Source: Chloroflexia bacterium
Lineage (GTDB): Bacteria; Chloroflexota; Chloroflexia; DTKN01
Direction: 5' to 3'
Assembly (NCBI GenBank): GCA_049970175.1
Contig: JBMFNL010000003.1
Location: 5,652 to 69,651, forward strand
Length of the DNA: 64,000 nt
The notes under the pieces were generated by a model that saw nothing but the letters and a program-made list of their open reading frames with translations, was not told where the DNA came from and did not search any database. A program made the translations under genes and the position numbers. How positions within the stretch are numbered: the stretch's first letter is position 1; each line of letters begins with the position of its first letter. Shown here piece after piece: positions 3,609-27,779 of the stretch.

Positions 3609-3662
3609 GGGTCACGCTCCTCGATAATTCTCAACGCTTCCATCGTACCACTTTCCTAGATT

Positions 3663-10040: not shown

Positions 10041-10109
10041 GGTGCCACTCCTCGGCTTGCTCAACACATTCCACCTTGAATGTGCTTCCAGAGACGTCTG
10101 TCGCTGCTT

Positions 10110-12909: not shown

Positions 12910-12951
12910 ATGGGCCGGTGTCCAACCGGGTGCCGGCCTGAGGAGGATGTT

Positions 12952-14067
12952 GTGGACCTGGAATCTTGGCTGCCCACGGACATTCTGTTATTCCTGGTGT
13001 TCTCCCTGGCCTTTGGCCTGGAAATCGTCCGTTGGTTCCGGCTACGCAGGTTTCACCTAAACCTGACCTGGACCGGAGGTTGGCGGTATGCCTATTACCT
13101 GTCCCGGCTGGCCCTGACGGCCGGCCTGGGGCCGGGGTTGGCGACCGCCCTGACCGGGGGAGTCACGCTGCTATGGAGGCATCTCCTGTCCCTACCTTCG
13201 CCCTATAACCTGTATACCGGCGGCCTCCTCTGGCTCGTGCTGGCCGGCGGCGTGGCCGGCCTGCTCTTTATCGCCTTGTCCAAGGTCTATGCGACGATGA
13301 GAGAGGTGATTCGGCCGTGGCTGTTCTGGACGGCCCTGGCCGCGATCTGCTTTGTCTTCGAGCCGCTCCGCTGGATTTTCGGGGGCACGCTTGTCCTCCT
13401 GGTGACCAGCGCCGTCGGCCGGAAGGTGCGCTTTACCGGCTGGCAGGACCTGGTCGACTGGCTTCGGGGGGCACCCGAGGAGGCCAAGTCCGCGGCAGAG
13501 CGCCTGGCGCAGCGACTCTACCGGCCTCGGCGTATCCGCATCGTGGTTCTGACCGAGGCGGAGGGATATCTGTCCTACCAAACAGGTGGGACCGAGGTCG
13601 GAGGCGACCAAGCCAAGCCGGACGCCCAACCGGTTACGCTCGAGGTCGCAGGCGACCAGGTTGAGCCGGACGGGAAAGTATCCCGGTTCATCCTGAATGC
13701 CGGCCGGCTGGAGACTCTGGTGGAGGCTGTCCAGCGGTTGGAGGAACGGGCCGATCTGCTGCAGGAAATTCCCCGGGTGATCGCCAGGAATGCGGAGAAG
13801 ATCGCCGAATATAAAAAGGGGATCGAACGGGAAGAGGGGGATCCCGAGGAGAAGAAGCGACGGGTAGAGGAATTCATTCGTCGTGAGGTATTCGAGGCAA
13901 CAGGGTTCGGCGAGCGGATGCGCTCCTTGCTTTACTGGCACTACGGCCTGCCGGAGGAGAAGGTGCAGGTCTCGGTAAGCCGGGCGCCCCGGGTGCGATT
14001 GGTGCCGCTCATTTCCTGGGCGGAGTATTTTGGGCTTTTTCTGGGGAAGGAGACCGGCGGATGGTAG
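12952..14067 (+). CDS. Hypothetical membrane protein (several N-terminal TM helices, charged C-terminal domain)
   Basis: GTG start after GAGGAGG. Hydrophobic N-terminal half, coiled-coil-like C-terminal half. No family recognised. Confidence 0.7.
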   Translation: MDLESWLPTDILLFLVFSLAFGLEIVRWFRLRRFHLNLTWTGGWRYAYYLSRLALTAGLGPGLATALTGGVTLLWRHLLSLPSPYNLYTGGLLWLVLAGGVAGLLFIALSKVYATMREVIRPWLFWTALAAICFVFEPLRWIFGGTLVLLVTSAVGRKVRFTGWQDLVDWLRGAPEEAKSAAERLAQRLYRPRRIRIVVLTEAEGYLSYQTGGTEVGGDQAKPDAQPVTLEVAGDQVEPDGKVSRFILNAGRLETLVEAVQRLEERADLLQEIPRVIARNAEKIAEYKKGIEREEGDPEEKKRRVEEFIRREVFEATGFGERMRSLLYWHYGLPEEKVQVSVSRAPRVRLVPLISWAEYFGLFLGKETGGW

Positions 14068-14121: not shown

Positions 14122-15999
14122 CTAGAATTGGGTCAGGCTGCCTTCGGCTCGGGCCTGCCGCAGGGCCAGGCGAAAGGCCAGCACCCCGGCCGGCAGGGTG
14201 AGGGCGGCAAAGAGGCCCAGCAGGGCCAGTTCCGTTCCCACCTGGAGGGAGCCGGCGCCCTGGAGGAGTGCCAGGCGTATGGCCCGCAGGGTATAAGTCA
14301 TCGGGAACAGGTAGGAGAGGGGCTGCAGCCAGGTCGGAAGGACGCCCACCGGGTAATAGATGCCGCTCAGGAGAGAGGAAAGGCCGCTCAGGACGAACTG
14401 GACCGGGTCGCCTCGCTTGGTTACCAGAATGAAGGCGGCGGAGAGGATGCCCAGGCCGCTGAAGGCCAGCAGGCTCAGGAGCAACACGAGCAAGGCCGTG
14501 CCCACGTTGGCCGGCCCCAGCGGGGCTCCGAACAGGGCCACCCCCATCCCCAGGTACAGCACCACCTGGCCCGAGGCCAGGAGAAAACTCCAGAGCGCCG
14601 AAGTCCCCAGAAAGGTTTCCAGACGGGTTGGCGTAACCAGGATGGCCTCCAGGGTTCCCTGCATCTGGCCGGAACGGATGGCCCCGGAGAAGGCATAGAG
14701 CCCCACCGCCTGGTAGCCGCCGAAAGCGATGCCGATGAGGACAAAGGCGAAATAGTTGCCTCCGTATTCGGAAAGGTACGGGGAAGCGGCCGGTCCGAGG
14801 AGGCGGGCCATAAAGTAGAAGGCGGCCACCGACAGCAGCATTCCCAGGAGTTGCAGGAGGGTAGCCAGGCGGTAGGTGACCTGGGTGAGCAGGTCGCGCC
14901 GCAAGAAGGCCAGCACCCGGCCGGCGGCGGCCTGGAGAGGGGGAAGGCGTGGAGGGGTGGGGGCACGGGGCCGGGGTTCGGCCGGCCGCGGACCTTCCAC
15001 CAGCAACGGGGCCGTCGTATTGTCCTCCATCGTCAACCGCTGGAAGACCTCCTCCAGGGGTGCGGGCTCCAGGCCGGCGTCCACGACCTCAATGCCCGAT
15101 TCCAAGAGCGGCCGCAGGAGGGCTTCGATCGGGACGGTATCCGGGAGTTCCACGGCCAGGCGGCGGCAGCCGGGGGGCGCGTCCGGACGTTCCTCCACCG
15201 GCCAGGGCCAGCCGGTCCAGGGCGGAGAGGAAAGGTGCGGCGGCAGGATCAGGGTGAGGAGGTAGCGCCGCCGAAAGCCCACGGCCGAGCGCAGGCCGGC
15301 CACCGGTGCGACGGCCCGCAGCCGGCCCCGGTGCATCACCGCCACCCGGTCGCAGAGGGCCTCGGCCTCGTCCAGGTGATGGGTGACCAGGAACACGGTG
15401 CAGCCGGAGCGGGCGATGCGACGGATGAGTTCGTGCAGGCGGGCCGTCGCCTCGGGGTCCAGGCTACGGGTCGGCTCATCCAGAAAGAGGACGGGTGGGG
15501 CGTGGAGCAGGGCGCGGGCCAGGTCCAGCCGGCGGCGCATGCCGGTGGAGAGCCGGTCGAAGCGTTCCTCCAGGGCCGGGCCCAGTTCCAGCGTTTCCTC
15601 CAGTTCGGCCAGGCGGGCGTCCACATAACTTCTGGCAAGTCCCTGGAGGGCTCCGAAGAAGCGCAGGTTCTCCCGTCCGCTCAGGCGCCAGTAGAAACTG
15701 CGTTCTTCCCCGCAGGCCAGGCCCACGTGGGCCTTGACGGCCTCCTCCTCGCCCAGGTCGTGGCCGCAGATCCAGGCCCGGCCGGAGGTGGGCAGGATGA
15801 GGGTGCAGAGGAGGCGTACCAGGGTGGACTTGCCGGCCCCATTCGGGCCGAGCAGGCCGAAGATTTCCCCTTCCTCCACCTCGAGGGAGACGTCGTCCAC
15901 GGCCAACACGCCGTCCCGGCGGGGGCGGACAAGGTCCCGCCAAGATGGAGGGGGCGGGAAACGTTTGGTGAGCCGGTCAGTCGCAATGGCCGGGGTCAG
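14122..15999 (-). CDS. Fused ABC transporter ATPase plus ABC-2 type permease
   Basis: Walker A GPNGAGKS, signature LSTGM, Walker B LFLDEP, H-loop VTH, then an ABC-2 TM domain (GTLEAIL..P, SGIYYP). Reading frame extends upstream of the listed GTG 15909 to a CTG at 15999 preceded by GGAGG. Confidence 0.85.
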   Translation of the reverse strand: MTPAIATDRLTKRFPPPPSWRDLVRPRRDGVLAVDDVSLEVEEGEIFGLLGPNGAGKSTLVRLLCTLILPTSGRAWICGHDLGEEEAVKAHVGLACGEERSFYWRLSGRENLRFFGALQGLARSYVDARLAELEETLELGPALEERFDRLSTGMRRRLDLARALLHAPPVLFLDEPTRSLDPEATARLHELIRRIARSGCTVFLVTHHLDEAEALCDRVAVMHRGRLRAVAPVAGLRSAVGFRRRYLLTLILPPHLSSPPWTGWPWPVEERPDAPPGCRRLAVELPDTVPIEALLRPLLESGIEVVDAGLEPAPLEEVFQRLTMEDNTTAPLLVEGPRPAEPRPRAPTPPRLPPLQAAAGRVLAFLRRDLLTQVTYRLATLLQLLGMLLSVAAFYFMARLLGPAASPYLSEYGGNYFAFVLIGIAFGGYQAVGLYAFSGAIRSGQMQGTLEAILVTPTRLETFLGTSALWSFLLASGQVVLYLGMGVALFGAPLGPANVGTALLVLLLSLLAFSGLGILSAAFILVTKRGDPVQFVLSGLSSLLSGIYYPVGVLPTWLQPLSYLFPMTYTLRAIRLALLQGAGSLQVGTELALLGLFAALTLPAGVLAFRLALRQARAEGSLTQF

Positions 16000-16020
16000 A
16001 GGAACCTCCGCTGGACCGTG

Positions 16021-16341
16021 CTAGGCCATCAACTGGGCCAGTTCGTGGGCTTCCAGGATGGGCATGAAGCGGGATAGTTCGACCATCTTGAAGATTTTGC
16101 GATGGTGTGGGCTGACATTGATGGCGTAGACGAGGTGTCCCCGCTTGCGGGCGGCGACGATGAACTTGAGCAGGCCGGAGATGCCGGCCGAGTTGATGAA
16201 CGCCACTTCGGAGAAATCCAGCACCGTGGTCTTGCGGCTGCGCCCGCAATATTCCTCGATCTCGCGGGCGGAGAGCGCGTCAATGCTGGGGGTTCGGATG
16301 TGGATGATGGCCACATTCCCGCGATCTTCCATCTGAATCAT
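16021..16341 (-). CDS. STAS-domain anti-sigma factor antagonist (RsbV/SpoIIAA-like)
   Basis: VLDFSEVAFINSAGI with the phosphoacceptor Ser, IFKMVEL. ATGA overlap with the upstream gene. Confidence 0.88.
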   Translation of the reverse strand: MIQMEDRGNVAIIHIRTPSIDALSAREIEEYCGRSRKTTVLDFSEVAFINSAGISGLLKFIVAARKRGHLVYAINVSPHHRKIFKMVELSRFMPILEAHELAQLMA

Positions 16342-16784
16342 GGCGTTTGCCTCCCGGAGTGTTCGTGAGGCTGGATGTGCAGCCACATCGTAAAGGTGTT
16401 TCCCTCCTCGCCGGAGGAAAATTCGACCCGGTCCACCAGTTGGTGGATGAGGAAGAGGCCCAGCCCGCGAAAGTCGCCCTGCTGGAGGGCTTCCTCGGTG
16501 AGTCCCTGGCGGCGAATCTCCAGGGGGCGGTCCAGCCGTCCCTGGTCGATCACCCGCACCACCAGTTGGTCGGCTTCCAGGGAGAAGACGATGCCGACGT
16601 GGACCTCACGTTGGAGGCGGTTGCCGTGCTCGATGGCGTTGGTTACCGCTTCGCTCACGGCCAGGGTCAGGTCGGCCACCTTCTCCTCGGAAAAGCCCAT
16701 CTGCCGGCCGATTTCCTGGGCGGCGGCCCGGACCACCCGTTCAAAGACCAGGTCGGAGGGGATGCGCATTTCCACCCGGTTCAT
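16338..16784 (-). CDS. Anti-sigma factor Ser/Thr kinase (RsbW/SpoIIAB-like)
   Basis: LAVSEAVTNAIEHG, VIDQG, RGLGLFLI...VD. Confidence 0.9.
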   Translation of the reverse strand: MNRVEMRIPSDLVFERVVRAAAQEIGRQMGFSEEKVADLTLAVSEAVTNAIEHGNRLQREVHVGIVFSLEADQLVVRVIDQGRLDRPLEIRRQGLTEEALQQGDFRGLGLFLIHQLVDRVEFSSGEEGNTFTMWLHIQPHEHSGRQTP

Positions 16785-16799
16785 CGGTTCCCTCCGGTT

Positions 16800-18320
16800 T
16801 CAGTATCCCAACACGCTGGTGGTGGCCCGCAACAGGCGGTCGTACTGTTGCAGGTAGGCCATGCCGACGGTGCTGTTGCCCAGTTGGAGATGGCAGGCCC
16901 CCAGGTAGTAGAGGGCCTGGGCGTGTTGGGGGTTGGCCTGCACCACCTTTTCAAAGCGGGGGATGGCCTGGGCCGGCTCGCCGGCCTCCTTGTAGGCCAG
17001 CCCGAGGAGGTAGTGCGTCTCCACATCGTCGGGCCAGTGTTTCAGGACGGCCTGGAATTCCTGGATAGCCTGACGGAAGCGGTTGCGCTTCAGGTGGATG
17101 ACCCCCATATCGTAGCGCAGGCTGACCAGTTGAGGGGCCAGTTCCAGGGCTTTTTTCCAGGCGTTCAGGGCCATCATTTCGTTGTTCATCGCCATGTACA
17201 GGCGCCCCAGGAGGTAGTAGGACTGGGCATTGCGGGGGTCCAGCCGGACGGCCCGCAGCAGGCACTTCAGGGCCGGAGCCGGCCGGCCCAGGATGACGAG
17301 GACCTTGCCCAGTTCCTGGAAGACGTCGGCGCTCTGCGGATATTGCTGGGCGCAACGGTAGAGCAACTGGTAGGCGCTCTGGGGCTGTTTCAGCAGACGG
17401 AAGACCCGGCTCATCTTGACGCAGGCGGCAACGTATTCGGGCGCCTTGGGAGAAATCTGGCGATACTCGGTCAGGGCCTCTTTCCAGCGTTTCTGGCGGG
17501 CCAGCAGGTTGCCCAGGAGGTAGCGGGCGCGATATTCCCGAGGCTTCCATTGCAGGAGGGCGCGGTAGATGCGCTCGGCCTCTTCCGGGTAGCCCTGCAC
17601 TTTGAGGTCTTCGGCCAGGCGGTAGTACCACTCCACGGCCTCCTGCTCGGAGCGGGTCTCCAGCCCTTCGCCGACCCTCTCCATCTTGAAGGTGGGCTCC
17701 ACCCGCAAGGCCTCGGCAAAGCACTTCTGGGCCAGTTCGTGGGCCCCGTGGGCCTGGTGCATCAGGCCGATGTAATAGAGCGGCTCGGCAGCATCGGGCC
17801 GGCAATCGTGGGCCGCCGTGTAGAAGATATAGGCGGCGCCGGGGTTGTCCAGGGCCTGGTAACAGCGTCCCAGGGCGAACTTGGCCTCGTAGAGGTCGGC
17901 GTTGTGCTTGAGCGCCTCCCGGAAGGCGTTGATGGCCTTTTCGATCTGGCCTTTGGCGGCGAAGGAGACGCCGATGTTGTAATGGGCCTCGGCCAGCGAG
18001 GGGTCGGTCTGTACCGCGTTGAGGTATTCGCGTAACGCCCCATCCCAGTCGTTGCGCAGCGCCATCGCGTTGCCGATGTAGAGGTAGATGATGGCCCGAT
18101 CCCGATCGGTGACCGGGACCTCGCTGGATTCTCCTTCCACATACGCAGCGAGCAGGGCCAGGCGGAACTCCTCGGCGGCCCGGGGGTAGTCGGCGTTCAG
18201 GTAGGCCTGCAACCCCTTGCTGAAAGCCGAGCCGGCCCGGGTGGCCTCCATAAAGCGCTCGCTTCCGGCGAAGGTGTCCAGGTCCAGGACGACCAGTTGG
18301 ATTTTTTCTTCATCGGCCAT
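16800..18320 (-). CDS. Tetratricopeptide repeat protein
   Basis: Repeated 34-aa TPR pattern (AEAHYNIG, AQSYYLLG, AQALYYLG) along most of its length. Confidence 0.9.
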   Translation of the reverse strand: MADEEKIQLVVLDLDTFAGSERFMEATRAGSAFSKGLQAYLNADYPRAAEEFRLALLAAYVEGESSEVPVTDRDRAIIYLYIGNAMALRNDWDGALREYLNAVQTDPSLAEAHYNIGVSFAAKGQIEKAINAFREALKHNADLYEAKFALGRCYQALDNPGAAYIFYTAAHDCRPDAAEPLYYIGLMHQAHGAHELAQKCFAEALRVEPTFKMERVGEGLETRSEQEAVEWYYRLAEDLKVQGYPEEAERIYRALLQWKPREYRARYLLGNLLARQKRWKEALTEYRQISPKAPEYVAACVKMSRVFRLLKQPQSAYQLLYRCAQQYPQSADVFQELGKVLVILGRPAPALKCLLRAVRLDPRNAQSYYLLGRLYMAMNNEMMALNAWKKALELAPQLVSLRYDMGVIHLKRNRFRQAIQEFQAVLKHWPDDVETHYLLGLAYKEAGEPAQAIPRFEKVVQANPQHAQALYYLGACHLQLGNSTVGMAYLQQYDRLLRATTSVLGY

Positions 18321-18333
18321 GGGTAACCATCCT

Positions 18334-18368
18334 GTTGCGTGTTGCGTGTTTCGTGTTGCGTATTACGT
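18334..18368. repeat. Heptamer tandem repeat (GTTGCGT) x5, imperfect
   Basis: gttgcgt gttgcgt gtttcgt gttgcgt attacgt. The last unit overlaps the PP2C stop codon. Confidence 0.85.
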
Positions 18369-19913
18369 ATAGCCTTCCAAGGTCAGGAGGAGTTGTTGGA
18401 CAAGTTCACGGGACGGCCCTGGGCCCCAGCGATCCCGCACCAGGCCGGCCAGGGTCAGGATGGCGGCCCGCCAGACCTCGGTGGGGGCCTCGGCGGGGAT
18501 GGAGAGGCCCTCCAGGCATTCGCGGAGCGTCTGTCCGCCCTCCGGTCCCAGGATATCGGCCGCCACCTCGGCCATCTCCTGCACCCGGTCGGTATAGCGG
18601 CGGCGCAACACAACCAAGGTGATGTCGTCATCCTGGGGTTGCGGGCCGGTGAAGGCGCGCACGGCCCGGACGATCTGGCGGGTCAGGGAACGCGGCCGGC
18701 GGGAAGTGCTTTCGTTGAGCAGGCGGTAGAGGCGCTCAAAGCCGAAGAGTTCGCCCCGCTCGTTGGTCGCTTCGACGATGCCGTCGGTGTACAGGATGAG
18801 CACATCGCCGGGTTCCAGCCGGGCCGTGGCCTCGTTGAAGGTGCAATCGCGGTCGATTCCCAGCGGCAACCCGTCCAGTTCCACTTCGCGGGCCACCGCG
18901 TTGAGGATCAGGGGGTAGTTGTGGCCGGCGTTGGCCAGGTGGAACGTCCCATCGGTGATGTCCAGGAGGGCGTAGAGGAGGGTGACGCACCCCTGGGGAA
19001 TCTGCTCGATCAGGGCCTGGTTGATTCGGGCGAGCGTCTGGCCGGGGGAAGCGTGGTTGCGGGCCTCGATGCGGAAGAGGGTGCGGGCGACGGCCATGTG
19101 CAGAGCCGCGGGGATGCCTTTGCCGGAGACGTCCCCGATCATGATTCCCCAGTGGGTGGAATCGAGTTCGACAAAGTCGTAGAGGTCGCCGCCCAGTTCC
19201 CGCGCCGGCAGGAAGGCCGTGCTGGCTTCCCAACCGGGCAGTCGGGGACTGCTGGCGAGGAGGAGGCTCACCTGGATGTCGCGGGCCACACGCAGGTCCT
19301 GGTGGAGGAGGTCGTCGTTGGTGGCGGTGGCCGGGGCCATTTCTGGCCGGGGAGCCGGCTGGTCCTCCTGGGCGGCAGGAATGGCCCGGCCGGCCTCTTT
19401 TCGGACGGCGGCGAGCACCCGGACCAGCACAAAGACGCCGACAAAGGCCATCAGGTACAGGAAGAGGGCCAGCAGGTCACGGCCGGAAACCCGCCTCGGA
19501 AGGAGGCGGGCCAGCCAGAGCCCCACATACAGAAGGCCCGTACCCCCCAGCAGGCCCGGCCCGGCCGCCCCGGGCACCTGGAGCGCGGTCCAGACCAGCG
19601 GCCACAGGAGAAGCAGAACAAGCGGATCCCGGGGTTGGGTCAGCAGGACGCTGCCGAGCGTGATTCCCAGGGCCTCCCCGGCCGTCAGGACCAGCCAGCG
19701 CCAGGGTTCTTTCTTCCAGGTCACAAAGGCGATCAGGCCGATCGCCGCCGGTCCCAAGCCCAGTGTCCATTCCAGCCAGGGCAGGCCGGCCGGTCCGGGC
19801 AAGTTGCCACGGCCGAAGAGGCCAACCGCAATCAGCAGGAAGGCCCACCATTCCAGGAAGAGGACCTGTCCTACCCACGGTCGTCTGGCCAGTTCGCTCA
19901 GCCGGCCGATCAT
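18363..19913 (-). CDS. Membrane-bound PP2C/SpoIIE-family (RsbU-like) phosphatase
   Basis: Multi-TM N-terminus. Motifs ARDIQ..LL, GGDLYDF, IGDVSGKG, NAGHN, LYTDGIVE, DDITLVVL. Confidence 0.9.
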   Translation of the reverse strand: MIGRLSELARRPWVGQVLFLEWWAFLLIAVGLFGRGNLPGPAGLPWLEWTLGLGPAAIGLIAFVTWKKEPWRWLVLTAGEALGITLGSVLLTQPRDPLVLLLLWPLVWTALQVPGAAGPGLLGGTGLLYVGLWLARLLPRRVSGRDLLALFLYLMAFVGVFVLVRVLAAVRKEAGRAIPAAQEDQPAPRPEMAPATATNDDLLHQDLRVARDIQVSLLLASSPRLPGWEASTAFLPARELGGDLYDFVELDSTHWGIMIGDVSGKGIPAALHMAVARTLFRIEARNHASPGQTLARINQALIEQIPQGCVTLLYALLDITDGTFHLANAGHNYPLILNAVAREVELDGLPLGIDRDCTFNEATARLEPGDVLILYTDGIVEATNERGELFGFERLYRLLNESTSRRPRSLTRQIVRAVRAFTGPQPQDDDITLVVLRRRYTDRVQEMAEVAADILGPEGGQTLRECLEGLSIPAEAPTEVWRAAILTLAGLVRDRWGPGPSRELVQQLLLTLEGYT

Positions 19914-19920
19914 GGTCGCT

Positions 19921-21444
19921 TCACCCCCAGGGCCTCTCCGGCAGCGCCGGAGCCGGGCCTTCCAGTACCTCCAGATGCTTTCGGCAGGCCTGCCGGAGCA
20001 GGTGCACCGGCACGCCGTCAATGAGGTCCTCTTCCGGCCGGCCCAGGAGGGTACGCCAGGTCCGGCGAAAGGCCTGGGCCGCCCGACGACGGTCGGACAG
20101 GGCCAGGAAGAGGTCGCCCAGGTAATAGTGGGCGGTCGGCGAGGAAGGGTTCAGGTAAGCCGCCCGTTCCAGATCGGCGACGGCCTGCTCCAGCCGGCCT
20201 TGTTGGCGGTGGATCAGGCCGCGCAACAGGTAGGCTTCCTCGGCCAGGTCATCCAGTTCCAGAGCCCGCTCGCAGGCCCGTAGGGCCTCGGTGTAACGTC
20301 CCTGGTTGGCATAGACCTGGGCCAGGCCGCAGAAGGCTTCCACCAGGTTCGGTTCCTCGCGCAGGGCGGCGCGGAAGGCCTCTACGGCCTCTTCGTACAT
20401 CCCATCGCGCAGGCAGGAGAGGCCGTGCTGGTAGTGCGCCCGGGCCGGCTCCTCGTCGGCCGCCGCCTGCCGCCGTTCGTCCCCGGTTCGGCGAATCGGC
20501 TGGGGATGGGTGGGGGCCGTTCCCAGGAAGAGCGGCCGCTCCACCGAACTTCCGCCGGGGACGGAACGCGGTCGGGGCAGGGGGACTTCCGGGCGCGTCG
20601 GCCGGGCCGCTTTTCCCTTGCGGTAGAAAAAGACCCCGCCCCGCTGCACCCGCTCAAAGGCATCGAAGACCTGCCAGAGGGTCTCGGAAAAGCCGATGAA
20701 GAGGTAGCCTCCCTCCTTCAGGCAGCGGTAGAGGTTGGCCATCAGGCGGCGCGAGGTCTCGATGCGGAAGTAGATGGTCACGTTGCGGCAAAAGATCACG
20801 TCCACCCCGTGCACGAAGGGTGGAAGCGGCTCGGCGACCAAGTTGACCTCGTGGAAGCGGACCAGTTCCCGCAGTTCCGGTTTCACGGAGTACCATTCGC
20901 CCTGGCGCTCAAAGTAGCGCGACAGGTAGGCCGGCTCGACCCGCTGGACCTGCCGTTCGGTGAAACGGCCCTGGCGGGCATACTCCAGGGCCTGCCGGCT
21001 CAGGTCCGTGGCCAGGATTTCCACCGGTCGGCGGGGTGGGCACCCCAGCGTTTCGGCCACGGTGATGGCGAGGGAGTAGGCTTCCTGGCCGGTGGAACAG
21101 CCGGCGCTCCAGAGCCGTAAGGGAAGGCCGGCCGGCCGGAGGCGCTCCAGTTCGGGCAGGACGACCTCGGCCAGCAGACGGAAGTGGCGCGGGTTGCGGA
21201 AGAACGAGGTTTCCCGGTTGACCACTTCCTCCAGGAGGGCGCTCATTTCCTCCTTGCCGGCCGGCGAATCGAGCAGGGCCCGGTAGTCCTCCCAGGTACG
21301 CAGGCCGTGGTGGCTCAGCCGGCCGGCGACGGTGCGGGAGAAGGAGCGGCGGCGCGAGTCGTCCAGGTAAATCCCGCTGCAGGCCTGGATACGCTCGCGC
21401 AATTCGGTGAAGGCGGCTTCATCCAATTCCCACACCGGCGACAT
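19921..21444 (-). CDS. cheR: CheR methyltransferase with C-terminal TPRs (WspC-like)
   Basis: NRETSFFRN, LWSAGCSTGQEAYS, ATDLS, DVIFCRNVTIYF, GGYLFIG, then TPRs. Confidence 0.92.
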   Translation of the reverse strand: MSPVWELDEAAFTELRERIQACSGIYLDDSRRRSFSRTVAGRLSHHGLRTWEDYRALLDSPAGKEEMSALLEEVVNRETSFFRNPRHFRLLAEVVLPELERLRPAGLPLRLWSAGCSTGQEAYSLAITVAETLGCPPRRPVEILATDLSRQALEYARQGRFTERQVQRVEPAYLSRYFERQGEWYSVKPELRELVRFHEVNLVAEPLPPFVHGVDVIFCRNVTIYFRIETSRRLMANLYRCLKEGGYLFIGFSETLWQVFDAFERVQRGGVFFYRKGKAARPTRPEVPLPRPRSVPGGSSVERPLFLGTAPTHPQPIRRTGDERRQAAADEEPARAHYQHGLSCLRDGMYEEAVEAFRAALREEPNLVEAFCGLAQVYANQGRYTEALRACERALELDDLAEEAYLLRGLIHRQQGRLEQAVADLERAAYLNPSSPTAHYYLGDLFLALSDRRRAAQAFRRTWRTLLGRPEEDLIDGVPVHLLRQACRKHLEVLEGPAPALPERPWG

Positions 21445-21446
21445 CC

Positions 21447-22559
21447 TCACGTGTCCTGGGCCGGTCGGTCCGTCACGGCCCGCAAGAGGGCCGGCGCGAT
21501 GTCTTCCAGCGGGAGCACCTGCTGGGGCGCTCCCAGTTCGATGGCTGCCCGGGGCATGCCAAAGATCGTGGAGGTGGCCTGGTCCTGGGCGATGGTTACC
21601 CCGCCGGCCCGGCGGATGGCCAGCAGGCCCTCGGCCCCATCGCTGCCCATGCCGGTCAGGAGGACGCCGACGGCCCGCCGGCCGAAATGCTGGGCGGCGG
21701 CCTGCATCGTTACATCCACGGAGGGGATGAGGGGCGTCCGGGGCGTCTCCGCCAGATAGAGCCGGCGGCGGTCGGGCAGGAGGTGGAGGCCCTCCGGGGC
21801 GATGTAGACCCGGCCGGGAGTCAGCCCGTCGTCCTGGTGGGCCAGCGCGACCCGAAGGCGCGTCTCTCCGGCCAGCCATTCGGCCAGCCCCCGGGTGAAA
21901 CCGGAGGCGATGTGCTGGACCACCAGGATGGGGGCAGGGAAATCGGCCGGCAACCGGGAGAGGATGCGCTGGAGGGCCCGGGGGCCGCCGGTAGAGGCCC
22001 CGATCACCACGAGGCGCGAGGGGGCCTCGGCCGGAGCCGGGCTGGTCTCCGTCGGGAGGGGAGGTAGGGGCAGCGCCCGGACGGCCCGTCGGCGTCCGCG
22101 CAGATGGGTGATCACCCGCACGCGAGAAAGGAGGCGGACGCGCTCGATGAGGGCCTGGGCCCGGGTGCGCAGGGCGGCGGGGTCATCGCCGGCCGGCTTC
22201 TCCAGGATGTCGAGCGCCCCCGCTTCCAGCATGCGGAAGGAAAAGTCCACATCCTGTTTGGATAGGGAGGCGGTAACGATGAGGATCGGTGTGGGATGGT
22301 AGGCCATGATCTGGCAGGTGGCCTCGTAGCCGTCCATCTCCGGCATCCGCACGTCCATGGTGATGACATCCGGGCGCAGCCGGGCGGTCATCTGCACCGC
22401 CTCCCAACCGTTGCGGGCCAGGCCGACCACCTCGATTCCCGGGTCGCCCTCCAGGATGGAGCGAATGACCGCCCGGGCGACCGGCGAATCGTCCACGACC
22501 AGGACCCGCAGTTTCCGCTCGTTTTCGGCCTCCCGTGCGCGTTCGTCTTCCCGATCCAT
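21447..22559 (-). CDS. cheB: Chemotaxis methylesterase (REC-CheB)
   Basis: VLVVDDS, DVITMD, GASTGGP, VQHI, PSVD, TGMGSDGA, FGMP. Confidence 0.95.
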   Translation of the reverse strand: MDREDERAREAENERKLRVLVVDDSPVARAVIRSILEGDPGIEVVGLARNGWEAVQMTARLRPDVITMDVRMPEMDGYEATCQIMAYHPTPILIVTASLSKQDVDFSFRMLEAGALDILEKPAGDDPAALRTRAQALIERVRLLSRVRVITHLRGRRRAVRALPLPPLPTETSPAPAEAPSRLVVIGASTGGPRALQRILSRLPADFPAPILVVQHIASGFTRGLAEWLAGETRLRVALAHQDDGLTPGRVYIAPEGLHLLPDRRRLYLAETPRTPLIPSVDVTMQAAAQHFGRRAVGVLLTGMGSDGAEGLLAIRRAGGVTIAQDQATSTIFGMPRAAIELGAPQQVLPLEDIAPALLRAVTDRPAQDT

Positions 22560-22560
22560 G

Positions 22561-22941
22561 CTATCCTTCGATCCCCCGCAGGCGCAGGAGGAAACCGATT
22601 CGTTCGCCCAGTTCCAGCAGGTCAAAGTCCTTGTTCAGGTAATCGTCCATCCCCACCTCGAAGCCGACGCTCGTATCGTCCATCGAGGTCAGCGCGATGA
22701 TGGGGAGGTCGCGGATGGCCGGATTTTCGTCTCGACGCAACCGCCGGCAGACCTCGTAGCCGTCAATGCCGGGCAGCCGGATGTCGAGGACCAGGAGGTG
22801 GGGAGGATCGGCCCGGATTCGTTCCAGGGCTTCCTCTCCGCTGGAAGCCACACTGACCTGATAGCCCAACGCCTCCAGACGCAATTTGACGATGTCGGTG
22901 ACCAGACGGCTATCGTCCACGACCAGGATACGGACGGCCAA
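22561..22941 (-). CDS. Single-domain response regulator (REC)
   Basis: ILVVDD, LVLDIRLPGIDG, IIALT, DDYLNK. TTG start after AAGGAGG. Confidence 0.9.
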   Translation of the reverse strand: MAVRILVVDDSRLVTDIVKLRLEALGYQVSVASSGEEALERIRADPPHLLVLDIRLPGIDGYEVCRRLRRDENPAIRDLPIIALTSMDDTSVGFEVGMDDYLNKDFDLLELGERIGFLLRLRGIEG

Positions 22942-22952
22942 CGTGCACCTCC

Positions 22953-25142
22953 TTACCCCACCAGGTGAGCCACCGTCTCCAGGAGATTGCCCTGGTCGAA
23001 GCGGCTCTTGGTGATATAGGCCTGGGCTCCGAGTTGCATCCCCTGACGGCGCCGCTCCTCATCGGCGTAGGCCGTGATGATGACGATCGGCAGGTTGGCC
23101 CAGCGCGGGTTCTGGCGGATGCGGGCGGTGAGTTGCAGGCCGTCCAGGCGTGGCATCTCGATATCGGTGATGACCAGGTGATAGGTACCGCGTTCCAGTT
23201 TTTGGAGCGCGTCCAGCCCGTCCTGGGCCGTCTCCACCCGGTAGCCGGCCGCTTCCAGGATGCTGCGCTCCAGTTCTCGGGTGATCAGGGTGTCTTCGAC
23301 CAGCAGGATGCGAGGGGGGTCCCGGGGAGGTGGAGGGGCCTCCCGGGGGTGCTCCGGGGGAATGGGGGCCGTCGGGCGGGCGCTGAGGAGGCCGCTCAGG
23401 TCTAGGATGGGAATCACCTGACCGGCCTCGGAAATCGTTGCCGCGGAGAAGTAGGGGCTGCGGCTCAGGATTTCGCCCAGGGGCTGAACGATGGCTTCCA
23501 TCTCATCGAGGAGACGGTCCACGGTCAGCGCCACCTGGTGACCATCGCTGCCGGCGATCACGGCCACCGTCCCTTTCTGTCCCGAAGCACCGGCGGCCAG
23601 GCCCAGGACCTGGGCCAGGGTCAGGAGCGAAAGCGGACGTTCCTGCCAGTACAGCACCGGGTGTCCCTCCACATGGACGATTTCCTGAGGTCGCAGGCGG
23701 ACCAGGCCGCGGACGACGCCGGACGGGATCGCCAGCGTTTCCCCGGCCGCCTCGACCAGCAGCACCGGTATGGTGGCCAGCGTCAGGGGTACGTCCAGGA
23801 TAAAGGCGGTGCCCCGGCCCGGGGAGGTCTCCACCTGCACCAGTCCGTTCAGCCGCCGCATGGTGGCCTGCACCACGTCCAGGCCCACGCCCCGGCCGGC
23901 CATCTCGTCGGCCTGACGGCGGGTGGAAAAGGCCGGCCGGAAGAGCAACTCCAGGAGCGTCCTTTCGTCGGCCTGCTCGGCCTCCCTTTCTTCCAGCAGG
24001 CCCCGTTCCACGGCGATGCGGCGCACCTTCTCCAGGTCAATGCCCCGTCCGTCGTCCTGGACACGGATGTGTACCCGCCGTCCCAGGGTCTGGGCCTCCA
24101 GAAGGAGGCGACCCCGGGGCGGCTTGCCCAGCCGGAGGCGTTCCTCCGGCGGTTCGATGCCGTGGGACAGGGCGTTGCGCACCAGGTGCACCAGCGGTTC
24201 CCGCAAGAGGTCCAGGACCCGGCGGTCCAGTTCCACTTCGGCCCCCTGCACTTCCAGGGCAACCTCCACCCCGCATTCGCCGGCCAATCGGCGTACGACA
24301 CCCGGAAAGACTTCAAAGAGGGAGCCGATGGGCACCATCCGGATGGCTAGGACCTGTTGCTGCAGTTCGGCCAGATTCAGGGCAGAGCGTTCCAGCCAGG
24401 CCGTGTACTGCCGGCCGAAAGCGCTTCCTCGGGAGTTCTGTTCTTCCAGGCAGGATTCCAGCCGCTCCAGACGACGGGTCAATTCCTCGATCTGGCGGGG
24501 CCGCAGGCGCTCGTGGAAGGTTTTCAGCGTTTCCTTCAGGCTGCGCAGGGCTTGTTTCGTTTCCTCCTGGGCCCACAGGAGTTCCTCCAGGAGGGCCTGT
24601 TGCCGGCGGGCCTGCTCCTGAAGGAGCCGGGTTTCCCCCACCAGGCGGGAGAGGTGGTCCACCTGCTCCATATCCACCCGCATCGTCTCCCGGGGCGGGC
24701 CGGCCGAGGGGGCGGAGAGGGTGACGACCGGGGCGGCTTCCGGATGGGTTTCCCGCGGGCCCAGCAATCGCTCCAGTTCGGCCAGCAGGCCGGCCAGGTC
24801 CACCGCCTCGCCCCGTCCCTCGAGGCGGGCCGTGGTCAGGGCGCGGATGCCGTGGCTGGCCCGGAGCAGGGCGTTGCCGACCTCGGGGGTTAGAGCCAGG
24901 CTTCCCTTGCGTATGGCGCCCAGCACTTCTTCCATCTGATGGGCCAGGCGGTTGATTTCGGCAAAGCCCATGATCTTGGCCGAACCTTTGGTGGTGTGGA
25001 CGGCCCGCAACATCCGATCGATCAGGGCCGTATCGCCGGGGTTGGCCTCCAGGGCGGTCAATCCCTGCTCCAGGAGGTTCAGGTTTTCCCAGGTTTCGTC
25101 GCGGAATTGCCCGTAGAAGGCAGTCAGGTCAATATCGGTCAT
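22953..25142 (-). CDS. cheA: CheA-like hybrid kinase (HPT-HATPase-CheW-REC; WspE-like)
   Basis: RAVHTTKGSA, HLVRNALSHGIE, DDGRGID, GRGVGLDVV, CheW domain, C-terminal REC (ITDIEMP). Confidence 0.95.
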   Translation of the reverse strand: MTDIDLTAFYGQFRDETWENLNLLEQGLTALEANPGDTALIDRMLRAVHTTKGSAKIMGFAEINRLAHQMEEVLGAIRKGSLALTPEVGNALLRASHGIRALTTARLEGRGEAVDLAGLLAELERLLGPRETHPEAAPVVTLSAPSAGPPRETMRVDMEQVDHLSRLVGETRLLQEQARRQQALLEELLWAQEETKQALRSLKETLKTFHERLRPRQIEELTRRLERLESCLEEQNSRGSAFGRQYTAWLERSALNLAELQQQVLAIRMVPIGSLFEVFPGVVRRLAGECGVEVALEVQGAEVELDRRVLDLLREPLVHLVRNALSHGIEPPEERLRLGKPPRGRLLLEAQTLGRRVHIRVQDDGRGIDLEKVRRIAVERGLLEEREAEQADERTLLELLFRPAFSTRRQADEMAGRGVGLDVVQATMRRLNGLVQVETSPGRGTAFILDVPLTLATIPVLLVEAAGETLAIPSGVVRGLVRLRPQEIVHVEGHPVLYWQERPLSLLTLAQVLGLAAGASGQKGTVAVIAGSDGHQVALTVDRLLDEMEAIVQPLGEILSRSPYFSAATISEAGQVIPILDLSGLLSARPTAPIPPEHPREAPPPPRDPPRILLVEDTLITRELERSILEAAGYRVETAQDGLDALQKLERGTYHLVITDIEMPRLDGLQLTARIRQNPRWANLPIVIITAYADEERRRQGMQLGAQAYITKSRFDQGNLLETVAHLVG

Positions 25143-26671
25143 CCGAGTTCCATCCGGCCGGCGGATTGCAACTGCTCGGCGATTTCGGAAAGGGTGGCAG
25201 CGGCCTCGGCCAGTTGCCGGCTGCCCTCGGCCGTCTGGTTGGCCACTTCGGCAATTTCGCGCATCGTCTCCACGATCTGTTCGCTGGCGGTGCGCTGCTG
25301 GGTGGTGGCCAGGGAGATTTCCTGGGCCGCCTCGGCGGTGCGCTGGGCCAGGAGGACGATTTCCTCCATGGCCCGGCCGGCCTGGTAGACCTGGTTCACC
25401 CCGCGCTCCGTCTGCTTCAGGCCCTCTTCGGCGGCCATGACCGAGGCGTTGGTGGCCCGTTGAATCTCGGCGATGATGCCGCGCACTTCCTTGGCCGATT
25501 CCATGGCCCGGTTCGCCAGGCTTTTGATCTCGGCGGCGACCACGGCAAAGCGCCGGCCGTGTTCGCCGGCCCCGGCCGACTCGATGGCCGCGTTCAGGGC
25601 CAGGAGGTGGGTCTCGTCGGCGATGTCGTTGATGATCTCGATGATCTCGCCGATGCGCTGGGAATGCTCCCCCAGCGCCAGCACCTTGTCGGCCATTTCC
25701 TGCACCCGACTCTTGATCCCTTCCATCGCCGCCACCGTCTCGTCCACGGCGCTCTGCCCTCGTCCCACCGCCGCCAGGGTTTGTTCGGCCACTTGGGAGA
25801 CGTTCTCCGCGCTCTGGGCGATCTGGCGGGCGGTGTAGCCCATTTCCTCGATGGTGGAGGTCACCTCGCTGATGGCCGAGGCCTGTTGGGCGGCGCCGCT
25901 GGCCTGCTGGCGAGAAGTGGCCGAAAGTTCGGTCGCCGAGATGCCGATCTGGGTGGCCAGGTTGACCTGCTGGATGCCCTTTTCCATCAGGCGCTCGTTG
26001 GTGCGCAGAATCTCCTGGGCCCGTTGCTCCGATTCATGCACGGCCTCCAGGAGGGAGAGGGCATTCCGGCGGGTGACGTAGGCGACGTAGAAGAAGGAGA
26101 CGACCAGGCCCGTTCCGTACTGGAGCAGAAAGGTGTTCAGAGGGATGGCGTGTCCCGCGGAGGAAGGGTCGGTGCCTCCCGGCGATTGCGGAAGGGCCAG
26201 GGCGATGAAGAGCAGGGTGGCCAGGCCGGCGGTGAAGTAGACGGTGTTGCCGGGGAGGGTGGTCCCGCTGACCACAATCGGCCAGAGGAAAAGGACGGCC
26301 GAGAAAAAGGGCCACAGAGTCCCGCTGGCGAAGCCTTCATGGCCGGTCAGCAGGGTCACGACGATCAGCGTGGCCAGGACCAGGAGCCAGGCCCCTTCGA
26401 CCGGCCGACGGGCGTTGGCCAGCGGAATGACGGCCAGACAGACGGCGAGAAGCGCTCCCAGCCCGATCCAGGTCGGTGTGGTCATCGGGGACGCGGCCAG
26501 TTGGAACTGGTGGGCCAGGACATGGGCCAGGAGAATCACCAGCAGGCCCAGGAACTCGGCGACGGCCAGGCGGCGGACGGTGGTGCTGCGCCGCTCCAGT
26601 TCCTCCGACGAGAGCGCGGCCGGCGTGGTCAGGTAGGAGAAGATGCCCTGTTGCCGGTTTCCCTTGGTCAT
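25139..26671 (-). CDS. Methyl-accepting chemotaxis protein with multi-TM N-terminus
   Basis: IADETHLLALNAAIESAGAGEHGRRFAVVAAEIK hairpin tip, TIEEM methylation-type site, about six hydrophobic N-terminal segments. Confidence 0.93.
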   Translation of the reverse strand: MTKGNRQQGIFSYLTTPAALSSEELERRSTTVRRLAVAEFLGLLVILLAHVLAHQFQLAASPMTTPTWIGLGALLAVCLAVIPLANARRPVEGAWLLVLATLIVVTLLTGHEGFASGTLWPFFSAVLFLWPIVVSGTTLPGNTVYFTAGLATLLFIALALPQSPGGTDPSSAGHAIPLNTFLLQYGTGLVVSFFYVAYVTRRNALSLLEAVHESEQRAQEILRTNERLMEKGIQQVNLATQIGISATELSATSRQQASGAAQQASAISEVTSTIEEMGYTARQIAQSAENVSQVAEQTLAAVGRGQSAVDETVAAMEGIKSRVQEMADKVLALGEHSQRIGEIIEIINDIADETHLLALNAAIESAGAGEHGRRFAVVAAEIKSLANRAMESAKEVRGIIAEIQRATNASVMAAEEGLKQTERGVNQVYQAGRAMEEIVLLAQRTAEAAQEISLATTQQRTASEQIVETMREIAEVANQTAEGSRQLAEAAATLSEIAEQLQSAGRMELG

Positions 26672-26683
26672 GGCGGCCTCCTC

Positions 26684-27160
26684 TTAGCGGTCCTGGATCG
26701 GAGCCAGGGACAGCAGCATCGAGATTTCCTCCGGGGGAATAACCTGTCCCAGGTCGAGAAGGGGTAGCAGGATGTCTTCCTGCCAGACCAATCCCCAGAC
26801 AAGGGGACGGGGTTGCACCTCGCGCAATAGATCGGGCAGCAGCGTGATCTGCTTCCAGGGCAAGGTTACCGGGCCTTCGACGTCGTCAACGCGGAAGGAA
26901 AGCGGGGCGATGTCGGGGGGAAGTATGAGTAAAATGCCGCGTTTCCTCTCGCCGGGTGTTGCCAAGCCCAGGCGTATCTCCAGGTCCAGTACAGGGATGG
27001 CGGCCTCGCCCAGGGCCAGGAAGCCCAGTAGGTCGGGAGGGCCGTTCCGGGCCGGATAGAGCGTTTCTTTACGGCGCAGCGCTTCCACCTGTCCGGCCTC
27101 TACGGCGAACCGGTCGGAGCGAGTCTTGAGGAACAGGGCCGTGATCCCTTCTTCAGCCAT
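26684..27160 (-). CDS. cheW: CheW-like protein (divergent)
   Basis: GFLALGEAAIPVLDL, FRVDDV, LPLLDL. Lies between cheW and the MCP gene. Confidence 0.8.
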   Translation of the reverse strand: MAEEGITALFLKTRSDRFAVEAGQVEALRRKETLYPARNGPPDLLGFLALGEAAIPVLDLEIRLGLATPGERKRGILLILPPDIAPLSFRVDDVEGPVTLPWKQITLLPDLLREVQPRPLVWGLVWQEDILLPLLDLGQVIPPEEISMLLSLAPIQDR

Positions 27161-27659
27161 GGCGGACAGCCTCCAGCAGGCCGGCCGGATGAAGCAGGCG
27201 GGTAGTCTTTTCCTCCTGGCGGGCAATGGCCTGGAGGAAGGGGGCGGTTTCCTCGGCCTCGGCCGGTGGTGTTTGCCATGTGGATTCCGGCAGAGCGGCG
27301 ATGTCCTCGACCCGGTCCACCAGCATGGCCGCGGCGAGGCCTTCGTGCTGGACGATCAGCAGGCGGCTCTCGGCGGTCAAGGGACTTTTCGGCAGGCCGA
27401 GCAGTTGACGCAGGTCCAGGACCGGCAGGACCTCTCCCCGCAGGCCGGTAGCACCCAGGACGGCGGCCGGCAGGCCCGGTAGCGGGGTGATGTGGCCGAC
27501 CCGGCTGACCTCTCGCACGGTGTCCAGGGGAAAGGCGTAGCGTTCATCGGCCAGGTAGAAAACGAGCACGTTCCGCACCCTTTCCCGGCCTTCTTCCGGC
27601 CGTTCGGCTCGGCGGGCTATCTCTTCCTGGATTTCCCGAATTGTCCTGGAACTCGCCAT
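27153..27659 (-). CDS. cheW: CheW protein
   Basis: VFYLADERYAF..VREV, ITPLPG, GLRGEVLPVLDL, LVDRV. Confidence 0.92.
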   Translation of the reverse strand: MASSRTIREIQEEIARRAERPEEGRERVRNVLVFYLADERYAFPLDTVREVSRVGHITPLPGLPAAVLGATGLRGEVLPVLDLRQLLGLPKSPLTAESRLLIVQHEGLAAAMLVDRVEDIAALPESTWQTPPAEAEETAPFLQAIARQEEKTTRLLHPAGLLEAVRHG

Positions 27660-27734
27660 GCTCCACCTTGCCCGTGACGGGCCGGCAGGCATCCTGCCGG
27701 TTCACCTGCACATTGGCGTTATTTTTCAAAGTCT

Positions 27735-27763
27735 ATTGTACTATATCCGGCAAGGCCGTGCAA
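27735..27763 (-). promoter_or_regulatory. Promoter of the chemosensory operon
   Basis: TTGCAC-17 nt-TACAAT on the minus strand. Confidence 0.65.
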
Positions 27764-27779
27764 ACGCGCGCGGGCGGCC

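Follow-up and report, generated by a model that had tools for sequence, protein, structure and literature searches.

In a 64,000-nucleotide stretch of DNA from a Chloroflexia bacterium (contig JBMFNL010000003.1; hereafter the window, whose numbering we use throughout), we identified a block of chemosensory (che) genes that is followed by four genes encoding a PP2C-family phosphatase, a tetratricopeptide repeat (TPR) protein, an RsbW-like serine kinase and a STAS domain protein. All belong to a series of twelve genes on the minus strand (14122-27692) that ends with an ABC-2 transporter gene. Our data show that the che block and the PP2C-TPR-RsbW-STAS quartet are one conserved unit across Chloroflexus, Oscillochloris, Roseiflexus and Herpetosiphon, with a linkage well past what chance would give. 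The phosphatase/kinase/STAS switch, together with the TPR protein, is probably the long-missing output of the che pathway. On balance, we consider it somewhat probable that the series is a single che operon of the alternative cellular function (ACF) type with a four-protein partner switch as its output, and that the target of this switch is either a non-sigma protein or a second RpoD-like sigma factor.

The initial annotation of the window had joined the che and rsb-like blocks in one system on the basis of this single stretch. We examined gene neighborhoods in two samples of relatives, and found the two blocks linked there as well: the order cheW-MCP-cheA-REC-cheB-cheR-PP2C-TPR-RsbW-STAS recurs in several Chloroflexia families. 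For the first sample, we searched 40 relatives for the PP2C protein, took 19 regions of at most 20 kb, and mapped the twelve proteins of the series onto them by tblastn. Genomes of the same family carry full-length PP2C copies with 55-84% identity (apart from one that is cut by a contig end and one partial match), and those of other families carry shorter copies with 42-49% identity over the matched region. The order che...cheR-PP2C-TPR-RsbW-STAS is kept in 14 of the 19 regions. All eight same-family regions show cheW-cheW-MCP-cheA-REC-cheB-cheR-PP2C, and seven of them go on to TPR-RsbW-STAS; one of the eight begins inside the MCP gene, and in one the contig breaks off within the PP2C gene. 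In Chloroflexaceae and Herpetosiphonaceae, six regions have the same order minus the second CheW gene and the ABC gene, and tblastn matched the second CheW protein only in same-family relatives.

The second sample was centered on the TPR gene. We scanned an alignment of the TPR protein against one genome per species, and found that 143 of 158 matched stretches encode a relative. The counts given here are for the best 80 of these 143 loci, all of which are from Chloroflexia, including Chloroflexus, Oscillochloris, Candidatus Viridilinea, Roseiflexus, Herpetosiphon and Candidatus Ribeiella. PP2C, CheR, CheB, REC and CheA genes lie upstream of the TPR gene on the same strand in 56 of the 56 loci with at least 8.5 kb of upstream sequence, and the same loci show an upstream MCP gene in 55 cases and an upstream CheW gene in 52. 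The PP2C gene is upstream in 66 of the 68 loci having at least 1.8 kb on that side, and RsbW and STAS genes are downstream in 73 of the 76 having at least 1.2 kb on the other.

Of 301 Chloroflexia genomes sampled, 128 carry the TPR gene, as a single copy, and its distribution is near all-or-none by family. Using our own family labels, it was found in f1 (8/8 genomes), f4 (16/16), f8 (60/60), f9 (11/11), f11 (4/5), f12 (7/9), f14 (18/37) and f15 (3/5), and was not found in f3 (33 genomes), f6 (26), f10 (62) or f13 (13). A CheA search of the same 301 genomes gave 166 positives, and reading the two lists of positives side by side placed a CheA match in 127 of the 128 TPR-positive genomes. Of the 37 genomes in f14, 18 hold both the TPR gene and CheA, and the remaining 19 hold neither. 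CheA is found without the TPR gene mostly in f3 (26 of 33 genomes), where the matches that we read off the listing are weak (E 1e-36 to 1e-64). These tallies include three unpublished genomes (G099, which has both genes, and G039 and G019, which lack the TPR gene); their omission shifts the counts by at most 1-2, and no locus was drawn from them.

Beyond the class, a phylum-wide sample showed the TPR gene in 37 of 401 genomes, all of them in Chloroflexia families, with no match at E ≤1e-60 in other classes. In a library of 1.84 billion representatives, the only apparent orthologs among the best 150 matches were two full-length single-stretch clusters and five fragments; the other matches are giant multi-repeat TPR proteins, which we rejected as orthologs. 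We also looked for fused forms of the protein among longer proteins, and rejected all 70 matches as generic TPR proteins with 21-29% identity, none of them orthologous. Identity of the TPR protein is 95% within the genus, and 57-58% to the sampled Chloroflexaceae and Herpetosiphonaceae orthologs. The quartet’s TPR member is thus a narrow, lineage-specific protein, found in Chloroflexia only among the genomes searched.

The TPR protein itself (16800..18320, minus strand, 506 aa) matches Pfam TPR families throughout. Its AlphaFold model (mean predicted local distance difference test score (pLDDT) of 86) shows two TPR lobes, at residues 28-207 and 225-500, with a disordered linker between them. 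A fold search returned generic TPR superhelices only, such as OGT, SPINDLY and APC subunits, and offered no hint of function. Residues 12-24 form a near-invariant motif, LDLDTFxGSERFM, that is modeled with low confidence and that may be a docking peptide, judging by its resemblance to one; in f4 proteins the motif is preceded by an additional N-terminal tail. The initial annotation had put the TPR protein forward as a candidate coupler, and its status as the best-conserved, single-copy and lineage-specific member fits that role.

The catalytic and phospho-acceptor motifs of the switch and of the receiver are intact. The PP2C protein (18363..19913, minus strand, 516 aa; Pfam SpoIIE, E 9.5e-52) has the Asp motifs GGDxxD, GDVSGKG, TDG and DD invariant in 35 orthologs (D243, D246, D261, D377, D429 and D430), residues that we take to be metal ligands from general knowledge of the family. 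As first annotated, the protein has no REC domain by Pfam. Its N-terminus is membrane-anchored, with four hydrophobic segments by hydropathy and six helices (17-176) in the AlphaFold model (mean pLDDT 82.7). In this model, the membrane part spans ~175 aa. After a linker that is disordered, residues 199-220 form a long helix, residues 228-438 the PP2C fold, and residues 443-513 a confidently predicted C-terminal four-helix domain that is conserved in every family but f4. The membrane part is present in f1 and f4, and absent from the ~360-400-residue proteins of Chloroflexaceae, Roseiflexaceae and Herpetosiphonaceae. The best Foldseek matches of the catalytic domain were RssB-PP2C, SiaA, the RsbU domain of Rv1364c, and SpoIIE, with SiaA among the two best; the modeled fold is closest to the partner-switch phosphatases.

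The RsbW-like kinase, or switch protein (16338..16784, minus strand, 148 aa; Pfam HATPase_c_2, E 6e-29), keeps its N-box (SEAVxNAIxHG), DxG and RGxGxxLI motifs across 77 sequences. In the STAS protein (16021..16341, minus strand, 106 aa; Pfam STAS, E 1.1e-11), at least 95% of 75 sequences retain the serine of an FINSxG motif. The protein aligns to the anti-sigma antagonist TM1442 with the FINSAG serine under the MDSAG serine, a position that is presumably the phospho-acceptor, as in other STAS proteins. The single-domain, CheY-like REC protein (22561..22941, minus strand, 126 aa; Pfam Response_reg, E 1.1e-25) has residues D9, D10, D53, T85 and K104 invariant in 35 orthologs.

The MCP (25139..26671, minus strand, 510 aa; Pfam MCPsignal, E 2.4e-38) has a polytopic membrane N-terminus, with five hydrophobic segments in residues 35-161 by hydropathy, no HAMP domain by Pfam, and no large periplasmic domain. 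This architecture is common to 56 of 56 orthologs, which have 4 to 6 hydrophobic segments in their first ~190 residues. We considered and rejected a PilS-like six-transmembrane (6TM) sensor: 3 of 29 orthologs matched at E ≤0.1 (best 0.0013), all below the cut-off. No similarity was detected between the membrane parts of the MCP and of the PP2C protein.

RsbW- and SpoIIAB-type proteins classically hold group-3 sigma factors, as in Bacillus. The initial annotation had accordingly described a SigB/SigF-type partner switch controlling an unlinked sigma factor or other target. The parts of such a switch are present, namely a PP2C of the SpoIIE family, a kinase of the HATPase_c_2 type and a STAS protein that keeps the serine, but the cognate group-3 sigma factor is not. 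Of the seven Sigma70_r2 matches in the genome, two are RpoD-like proteins of 452 and 380 aa, four are ECF-like proteins, and the last is a fragment of ECF-like type. Both RpoD-like proteins score ~145 bits with the SigB/F/G model, whose cut-off is 234, and with the same model nine f1 genomes show two RpoD-like matches only. The cut-off was passed by none of 41 genomes (that of the window and 40 relatives), compared with one of 14 control genomes. An unlinked sigma factor of the SigB/SigF type therefore finds no support as the target, since the genome has no group-3 sigma factor and none exceeds the cut-off in the 41 genomes. The remaining targets are the second RpoD-like factor, which would have a parallel in RpoS and CrsR of Shewanella (PMC9855816), and a non-sigma partner, of which the non-sigma partner is the more likely. 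The co-inherited TPR protein is the obvious candidate for a coupler or an effector arm. Targets other than sigma factors have been discussed for the HmpWUV switch and demonstrated for SiaABCD in the sections of three papers that deal with these switches (PMC8256260, PMC9127174, PMC9239204).

These searches also bear on whether the quartet could be a true anti-sigma module, in which RsbW would sequester an unlinked sigma factor, dephosphorylated STAS would free it, and the che pathway would control a regulon. The kinase is most like anti-sigma-B RsbW, which is both its nearest NCBIfam model (E 2.5e-21, below cut-off) and its best solved relative by sequence (entry 6m36, E 2.2e-13), and the 380-aa RpoD-like protein is a second sigma factor on which it could act. 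RpoS is a group-2 sigma factor. The control of RpoS by CrsR/CrsA encoded in Shewanella che1, as stated in a passage of PMC9855816, favors the same explanation. However, the genome holds no group-3 sigma factor, none in the 41 genomes exceeds the cut-off, and there is no sigma gene in the window; an anti-sigma module would also give the strictly co-conserved TPR protein no role. We consider this explanation unlikely.

In the partner-switch output that we favor, the polytopic-membrane receptor and the two CheW proteins would set the activity of the CheA-REC kinase, with CheB and CheR-TPR supplying adaptation. Phosphoryl groups would move to the single-domain REC protein, and phosphorylated REC, acting directly or via the dedicated TPR protein, would tilt the balance of PP2C against RsbW; phosphatase and kinase alike would act on the conserved STAS serine. 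The phosphorylation state of STAS would then decide which partner is held by RsbW or by STAS. The final target may be a non-sigma one reached via the TPR protein, for example in surface motility or filament aggregation, or else the second RpoD-like sigma factor. We ran a complex prediction with PP2C residues 180-516, REC, and the TPR protein as the scored partner; its score of 0.00 against a mark of 0.32, obtained without controls, is evidence neither way. We also computed rate covariation among 10 proteins, using 52 taxa. The pairs that ranked highest with corrected distances were TPR-REC (0.65), RsbW-STAS (0.60) and CheB-CheR (0.60); with rank distances, they were REC-PP2C (0.49), TPR-MCP (0.42) and TPR-REC (0.40), and RsbW-STAS reached only 0.24. 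Because the order changes with the distance measure and is confounded by rate class, we did not use these values.

Signal could also flow in reverse, with the membrane PP2C and the switch serving as an input or modulator of the array, and STAS or RsbW acting on the MCP or CheA. The PP2C protein is membrane-bound in f1 and f4 and could sense, and a STAS protein acting on a chemoreceptor is proposed for Campylobacterota in a section of PMC9239204. In most families, though, PP2C is short and lacks the N-terminal membrane part, and would need an upstream signal; reverse flow would also leave the single-domain REC protein without a target in a genome where no flagellin was found. Together, these points make flow from the switch to the array distinctly unlikely.

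Several observations weigh against a partner-switch output for the che pathway. Gene order by itself cannot give the direction of flow. The PP2C protein lacks both a REC domain and a known REC-docking motif, and since its N-terminus varies by family, being membrane-bound in f1 and f4 but short and soluble elsewhere, the coupling may differ between lineages. A divergent group-3 sigma factor may score under the model cut-off. One TPR-positive genome (G136) gave no CheA match, and next to the TPR gene, four contigs of metagenome-assembled genomes among the 80 loci (L061, L062, L116 and L119) lack PP2C or RsbW. The neighborhood counts cover the best 80 of the 143 loci, and related genomes are non-independent samples: Chloroflexia genomes are kin, so the conserved order overstates the count of independent events. 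In the five regions of family f4, the quartet is reordered to RsbW-STAS-PP2C-TPR, with che genes directly after it in only two. All five f4 genomes hold che systems elsewhere, several in each, and the operon-like one is apart from the quartet in three. This arrangement belongs to the 63 lower-scoring loci of the second sample.

The kinship of the genomes and the separation of che and quartet in three of five f4 genomes would both fit two independent modules that travel together, their synteny reflecting shared ancestry and not function. Yet the order is kept between families at 36-60% protein identity while the flanking genes differ, every f14 genome has either both the TPR gene and CheA or neither, and cheR is flanked by junctions of 2 and 7 nt. 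We regard independence of the two modules as highly improbable.

The initial annotation had counted the ABC-2 exporter as part of the system. Comparison of loci indicates that it probably does not belong to the conserved system: a homolog with at least 50% identity follows the quartet in only five of 59 loci having at least 5 kb downstream, all of them close kin of the window. The gene (14122..15999 from a CTG start or 14122..15909 from a GTG start, minus strand) encodes an ATPase and an ABC-2 permease in one open reading frame (ORF; Pfam ABC_tran and ABC2_membrane), and scores 227 bits with the NCBIfam DrrA subfamily model, below its cut-off of 312. Among the eight same-family regions, five have a full-length ABC match, one has a C-terminal match only, one has none, and one reaches its contig end. 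In four same-family relatives, ~1.1 kb lies between STAS and ABC, and the quartet is kept without an ABC gene in Chloroflexaceae, Roseiflexaceae and Herpetosiphonaceae. Given its rarity in the loci and the ~1.1-kb separation in relatives, we treat the exporter as a family-specific neighbor.

We read the intervening sequence in two of these relatives (L021 3746-4780 and L024 5935-7000), and found a 344-aa tRNA-dihydrouridine synthase-like (dus-like) gene or its counterpart between STAS and ABC; same-genus and g2 relatives carry this gene. No copy of the dus-like gene was found in the window’s assembly (tblastn, E ≤1e-5), and the window has 111 nt at that place (15910-16020). Deletion of the dus-like gene seems to have taken the usual ABC start; the ABC protein of the relatives begins MRKEF.

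Within the family, STAS might still regulate the adjacent ABC-2 exporter, so that the che pathway would gate polymer or lipid export. The ABC gene does follow STAS, co-oriented, in most same-family genomes, and among solved structures the second-best match to the operon's STAS protein is another one, of 102 aa (entries 7ch8/7ch9/7cha, E 0.008), that we take to be MlaB of an Mla ABC transporter. Set against this are the count of five in 59 loci, the ~1.1-kb gap in four same-family relatives (with a dus-like gene in the two that we read), and the conservation of the quartet without an ABC gene in three other families. A role of the switch in export is very unlikely.

We compared the operon with known systems, beginning with the Wsp/ACF class that the initial annotation had named. 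It shares with that class two CheW proteins, a CheA-REC hybrid, CheR-TPR, CheB, one dedicated receptor, and no flagellar link. Unlike Wsp, it has no multidomain response regulator and no GGDEF output such as WspR: REC domains occur only in the single-domain protein, in CheB and in CheA, the output genes are PP2C, TPR, the RsbW-like kinase and STAS, and the receptor is polytopic without a periplasmic domain. The resemblance agrees with statements in PMC3447774, from which we took the class, that all Chloroflexi che pathways are classed as ACF. The same source states that ~80% of Chloroflexi genomes carry CheR-TPR, with no prototypal CheR and no flagellar genes. A section of PMC7332563 on Chloroflexales describes Tad pili as their only pili, and chemoreceptor-like arrays near septa.

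The operon also resembles the Bacillus RsbU/RsbV/RsbW-SigB and SpoIIE/SpoIIAA/SpoIIAB-SigF switches in its SpoIIE-family PP2C, HATPase_c_2 kinase and STAS protein with a conserved serine. It differs from them in that neither the operon nor the genome nor any of the 40 relatives holds a cognate group-3 sigma factor, in its input, which is a che pathway and not RsbT or a stressosome, and in the added TPR protein.

The F7 “stage 1” che clusters of gamma-proteobacteria, the ancestral F7 type, carry STAS genes and a serine phosphatase according to the portion of PMC7184735 that describes them, and the Shewanella oneidensis che1 cluster carries CrsR/CrsA (PMC9855816). Like our operon, these are che clusters with STAS and serine phosphatase genes that are thought, in the passages cited, to feed a partner switch and not a motor. 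The target known there, for che1, is RpoS, whereas that of the Chloroflexia switch can only be proposed. The Chloroflexia genome lacks CheD, and its receptor is membrane-embedded and not an Aer2-like soluble protein; its PP2C and kinase are separate, the PP2C has no REC domain, a TPR protein is added, and the phylum is a different one. CrsR, by comparison, is a REC-PP2C-kinase fusion.

Two further systems are comparable. Nostoc punctiforme is likewise a filamentous gliding bacterium, and non-sigma targets are discussed for its Hmp system with HmpU/HmpV/HmpW (PMC8256260, PMC9127174); it belongs to a different phylum, and the passages on the Hmp switch in these sources mention no TPR member. Pseudomonas SiaABCD, as outlined in part of PMC9239204, combines a membrane PP2C with a kinase and a STAS-like protein, and acts on an effector that is not a sigma factor. 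That effector is the cyclase SiaD and its input is not a che pathway, whereas no cyclase is linked to the switch in the window. We found no description of the quartet or of its che link in Chloroflexia in the literature, although the gene-cluster tables of earlier surveys may list these neighbors.

The assembly that contains the window is 3.08 Mb in 145 contigs and 95% complete, and the DNA runs containing this stretch are hot-spring metagenomes. All three CheW-domain matches and the sole MCP match of the assembly are located in the operon, and no flagellin was found in the genome; we therefore infer one chemosensory pathway with one receptor, and no flagellum. No CheD was found in the genome either. 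Four T2SSE-type ATPases exceed the family cut-off, and pilus-like systems may therefore be present. As first annotated, the window contains no sigma factor, cyclase or motility genes: Pfam analysis of the 33 other called ORFs showed no sigma, cyclase, pilus or flagellar gene, and these ORFs are housekeeping and transport genes with one LuxR-type two-component pair near 61-63 kb. No GGDEF domain is present in the operon or the window, and the GGDEF genes of the genome sit on other contigs.

Further partner-switch parts occur elsewhere in the genome, with six SpoIIE and 14 STAS matches and clusters on contigs 46 and 52. On contig 52 (~6.7-17.3 kb), seven consecutive STAS-domain ORFs, two HATPase_c_2 genes and a PP2C gene have a stressosome-like look. 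On contig 46 (~6.8-11.1 kb), a PP2C domain lies within a 1207-aa open frame, with an RsbW-STAS pair close by. Such switch sets are numerous for a genome without a group-3 sigma factor.

Pfam confirmed the gene types of the minus-strand series as first annotated, including MCP, CheA, CheW, CheR and CheB genes in one cluster and STAS and serine phosphatase genes inside it. The series begins with cheW1 (27153..27692, 179 aa; Pfam CheW, E 3.3e-32) and a divergent cheW2 (26684..27160, 158 aa from the ATG at 27160; Pfam CheW, E 4e-13). After the MCP gene come the cheA-REC hybrid kinase gene (22953..25142, 729 aa; Pfam Hpt, HATPase_c, CheW and Response_reg), the single-domain REC gene, cheB (21447..22559, 370 aa; REC and CheB_methylest by Pfam, with the NCBIfam CheB subfamily above cut-off) and cheR-TPR (19921..21444, 507 aa; Pfam CheR, E 1.3e-54, and TPR repeats), all on the minus strand and followed by the quartet.

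We shifted five gene starts to ortholog-supported positions before measuring gaps. The junctions from cheW1 through STAS are then -8, 12, -4, 11, 1, 2, 7, 42, 15 and -4 nt, and GGAGG-like sites precede several of the genes. The last junction, between STAS and ABC, is 111 nt to the first canonical start (GTG 15909) or 21 nt if CTG 15999 is used, which is a possible start because the frame is open from the STAS stop, a GGAGG lies ahead, and the ABC genes of relatives start further upstream. Ten of the 11 junctions thus agree with the annotated spacing of under 45 nt; for the last, the choice of start leaves this uncertain. A single promoter had also been annotated, and a sigma-70-like match (TTTGCA-18-TACAAT, 27735..27764, minus strand) does lie upstream of cheW1, agreeing with the consensus at 9 of 12 positions. 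However, neither this site nor the terminator scan carries statistical meaning: we found 4 sigma-70-like sites in 15 kb compared with 1.0 +/- 1.0 in shuffles, and 12 terminator-like sites compared with 8.7 +/- 2.9, which is no enrichment. The single transcript is for this reason proposed from gene spacing.

Other observations concern the surroundings of the operon and of its relatives. In the Chloroflexus islandicus locus (L084 13561-15598), past STAS and an mdh/ldh-like gene, we found two further genes, one for another single-domain REC protein and one of the REC-GAF-HD-GYP type (Pfam HD_5, E 2.8e-40). Putative REC matches are similarly placed in most Chloroflexaceae and Roseiflexaceae loci among the best 80. 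The pair may be a cyclic di-GMP branch of the same pathway in those families; the window’s family lacks it at this locus. On contig 16 (~45.5-49.9 kb) of the window’s assembly, an interval of under 5 kb holds three REC-like matches together with one to GGDEF, possibly an unlinked REC-cyclase set. Within the window, a 385-aa membrane protein gene with no Pfam or NCBIfam match (12910-14067, plus strand) is convergent with the ABC gene. A 1244-aa frame (6333-10067, minus strand) contains a serine hydroxymethyltransferase domain (97-439) and a GCV_T domain (830-1107), and must be an unusual fusion or else two genes that no stop separates in this frame. An alpha-2-macroglobulin-like gene (3-6182, minus strand; MG2, bMG3 and A2M bait region), which continues past the window edge, adjoins a PBP1C-type transglycosylase/transpeptidase gene, a known pairing.

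The wiring of a che pathway to a partner switch already has a precedent in the gamma-proteobacterial F7 clusters. What distinguishes the Chloroflexia operon is its separate receiver, phosphatase and kinase, its lineage-specific TPR protein, its polytopic-membrane receptor, and the lack of any target of the SigB/SigF type. The gliding filaments Chloroflexus, Roseiflexus, Oscillochloris and Herpetosiphon are textbook organisms, and to our knowledge their che genes have been catalogued as ACF with no output named. The conserved quartet provides four concrete candidate genes for this output, present in cultured strains. With kinase, phosphatase and receiver on separate proteins, each step can be tested in isolation, and the soluble PP2C of most families should purify easily. 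The operon would be a second, phylogenetically remote case of His-Asp signaling feeding a serine-phosphorylation switch, and one more example of a partner switch that seems to work without a SigB/SigF-type sigma factor. A wider idea, which we advance tentatively and hold to be doubtful, is that a sigma-independent switch around a TPR hub is the general output of che arrays in gliding filamentous Chloroflexia, steering surface behavior such as Tad-pilus gliding, reversals and aggregation post-translationally. If true, chemotaxis output would take one more form, a TPR-hub switch, in addition to motor control by CheY and to enzymes fused to REC domains.

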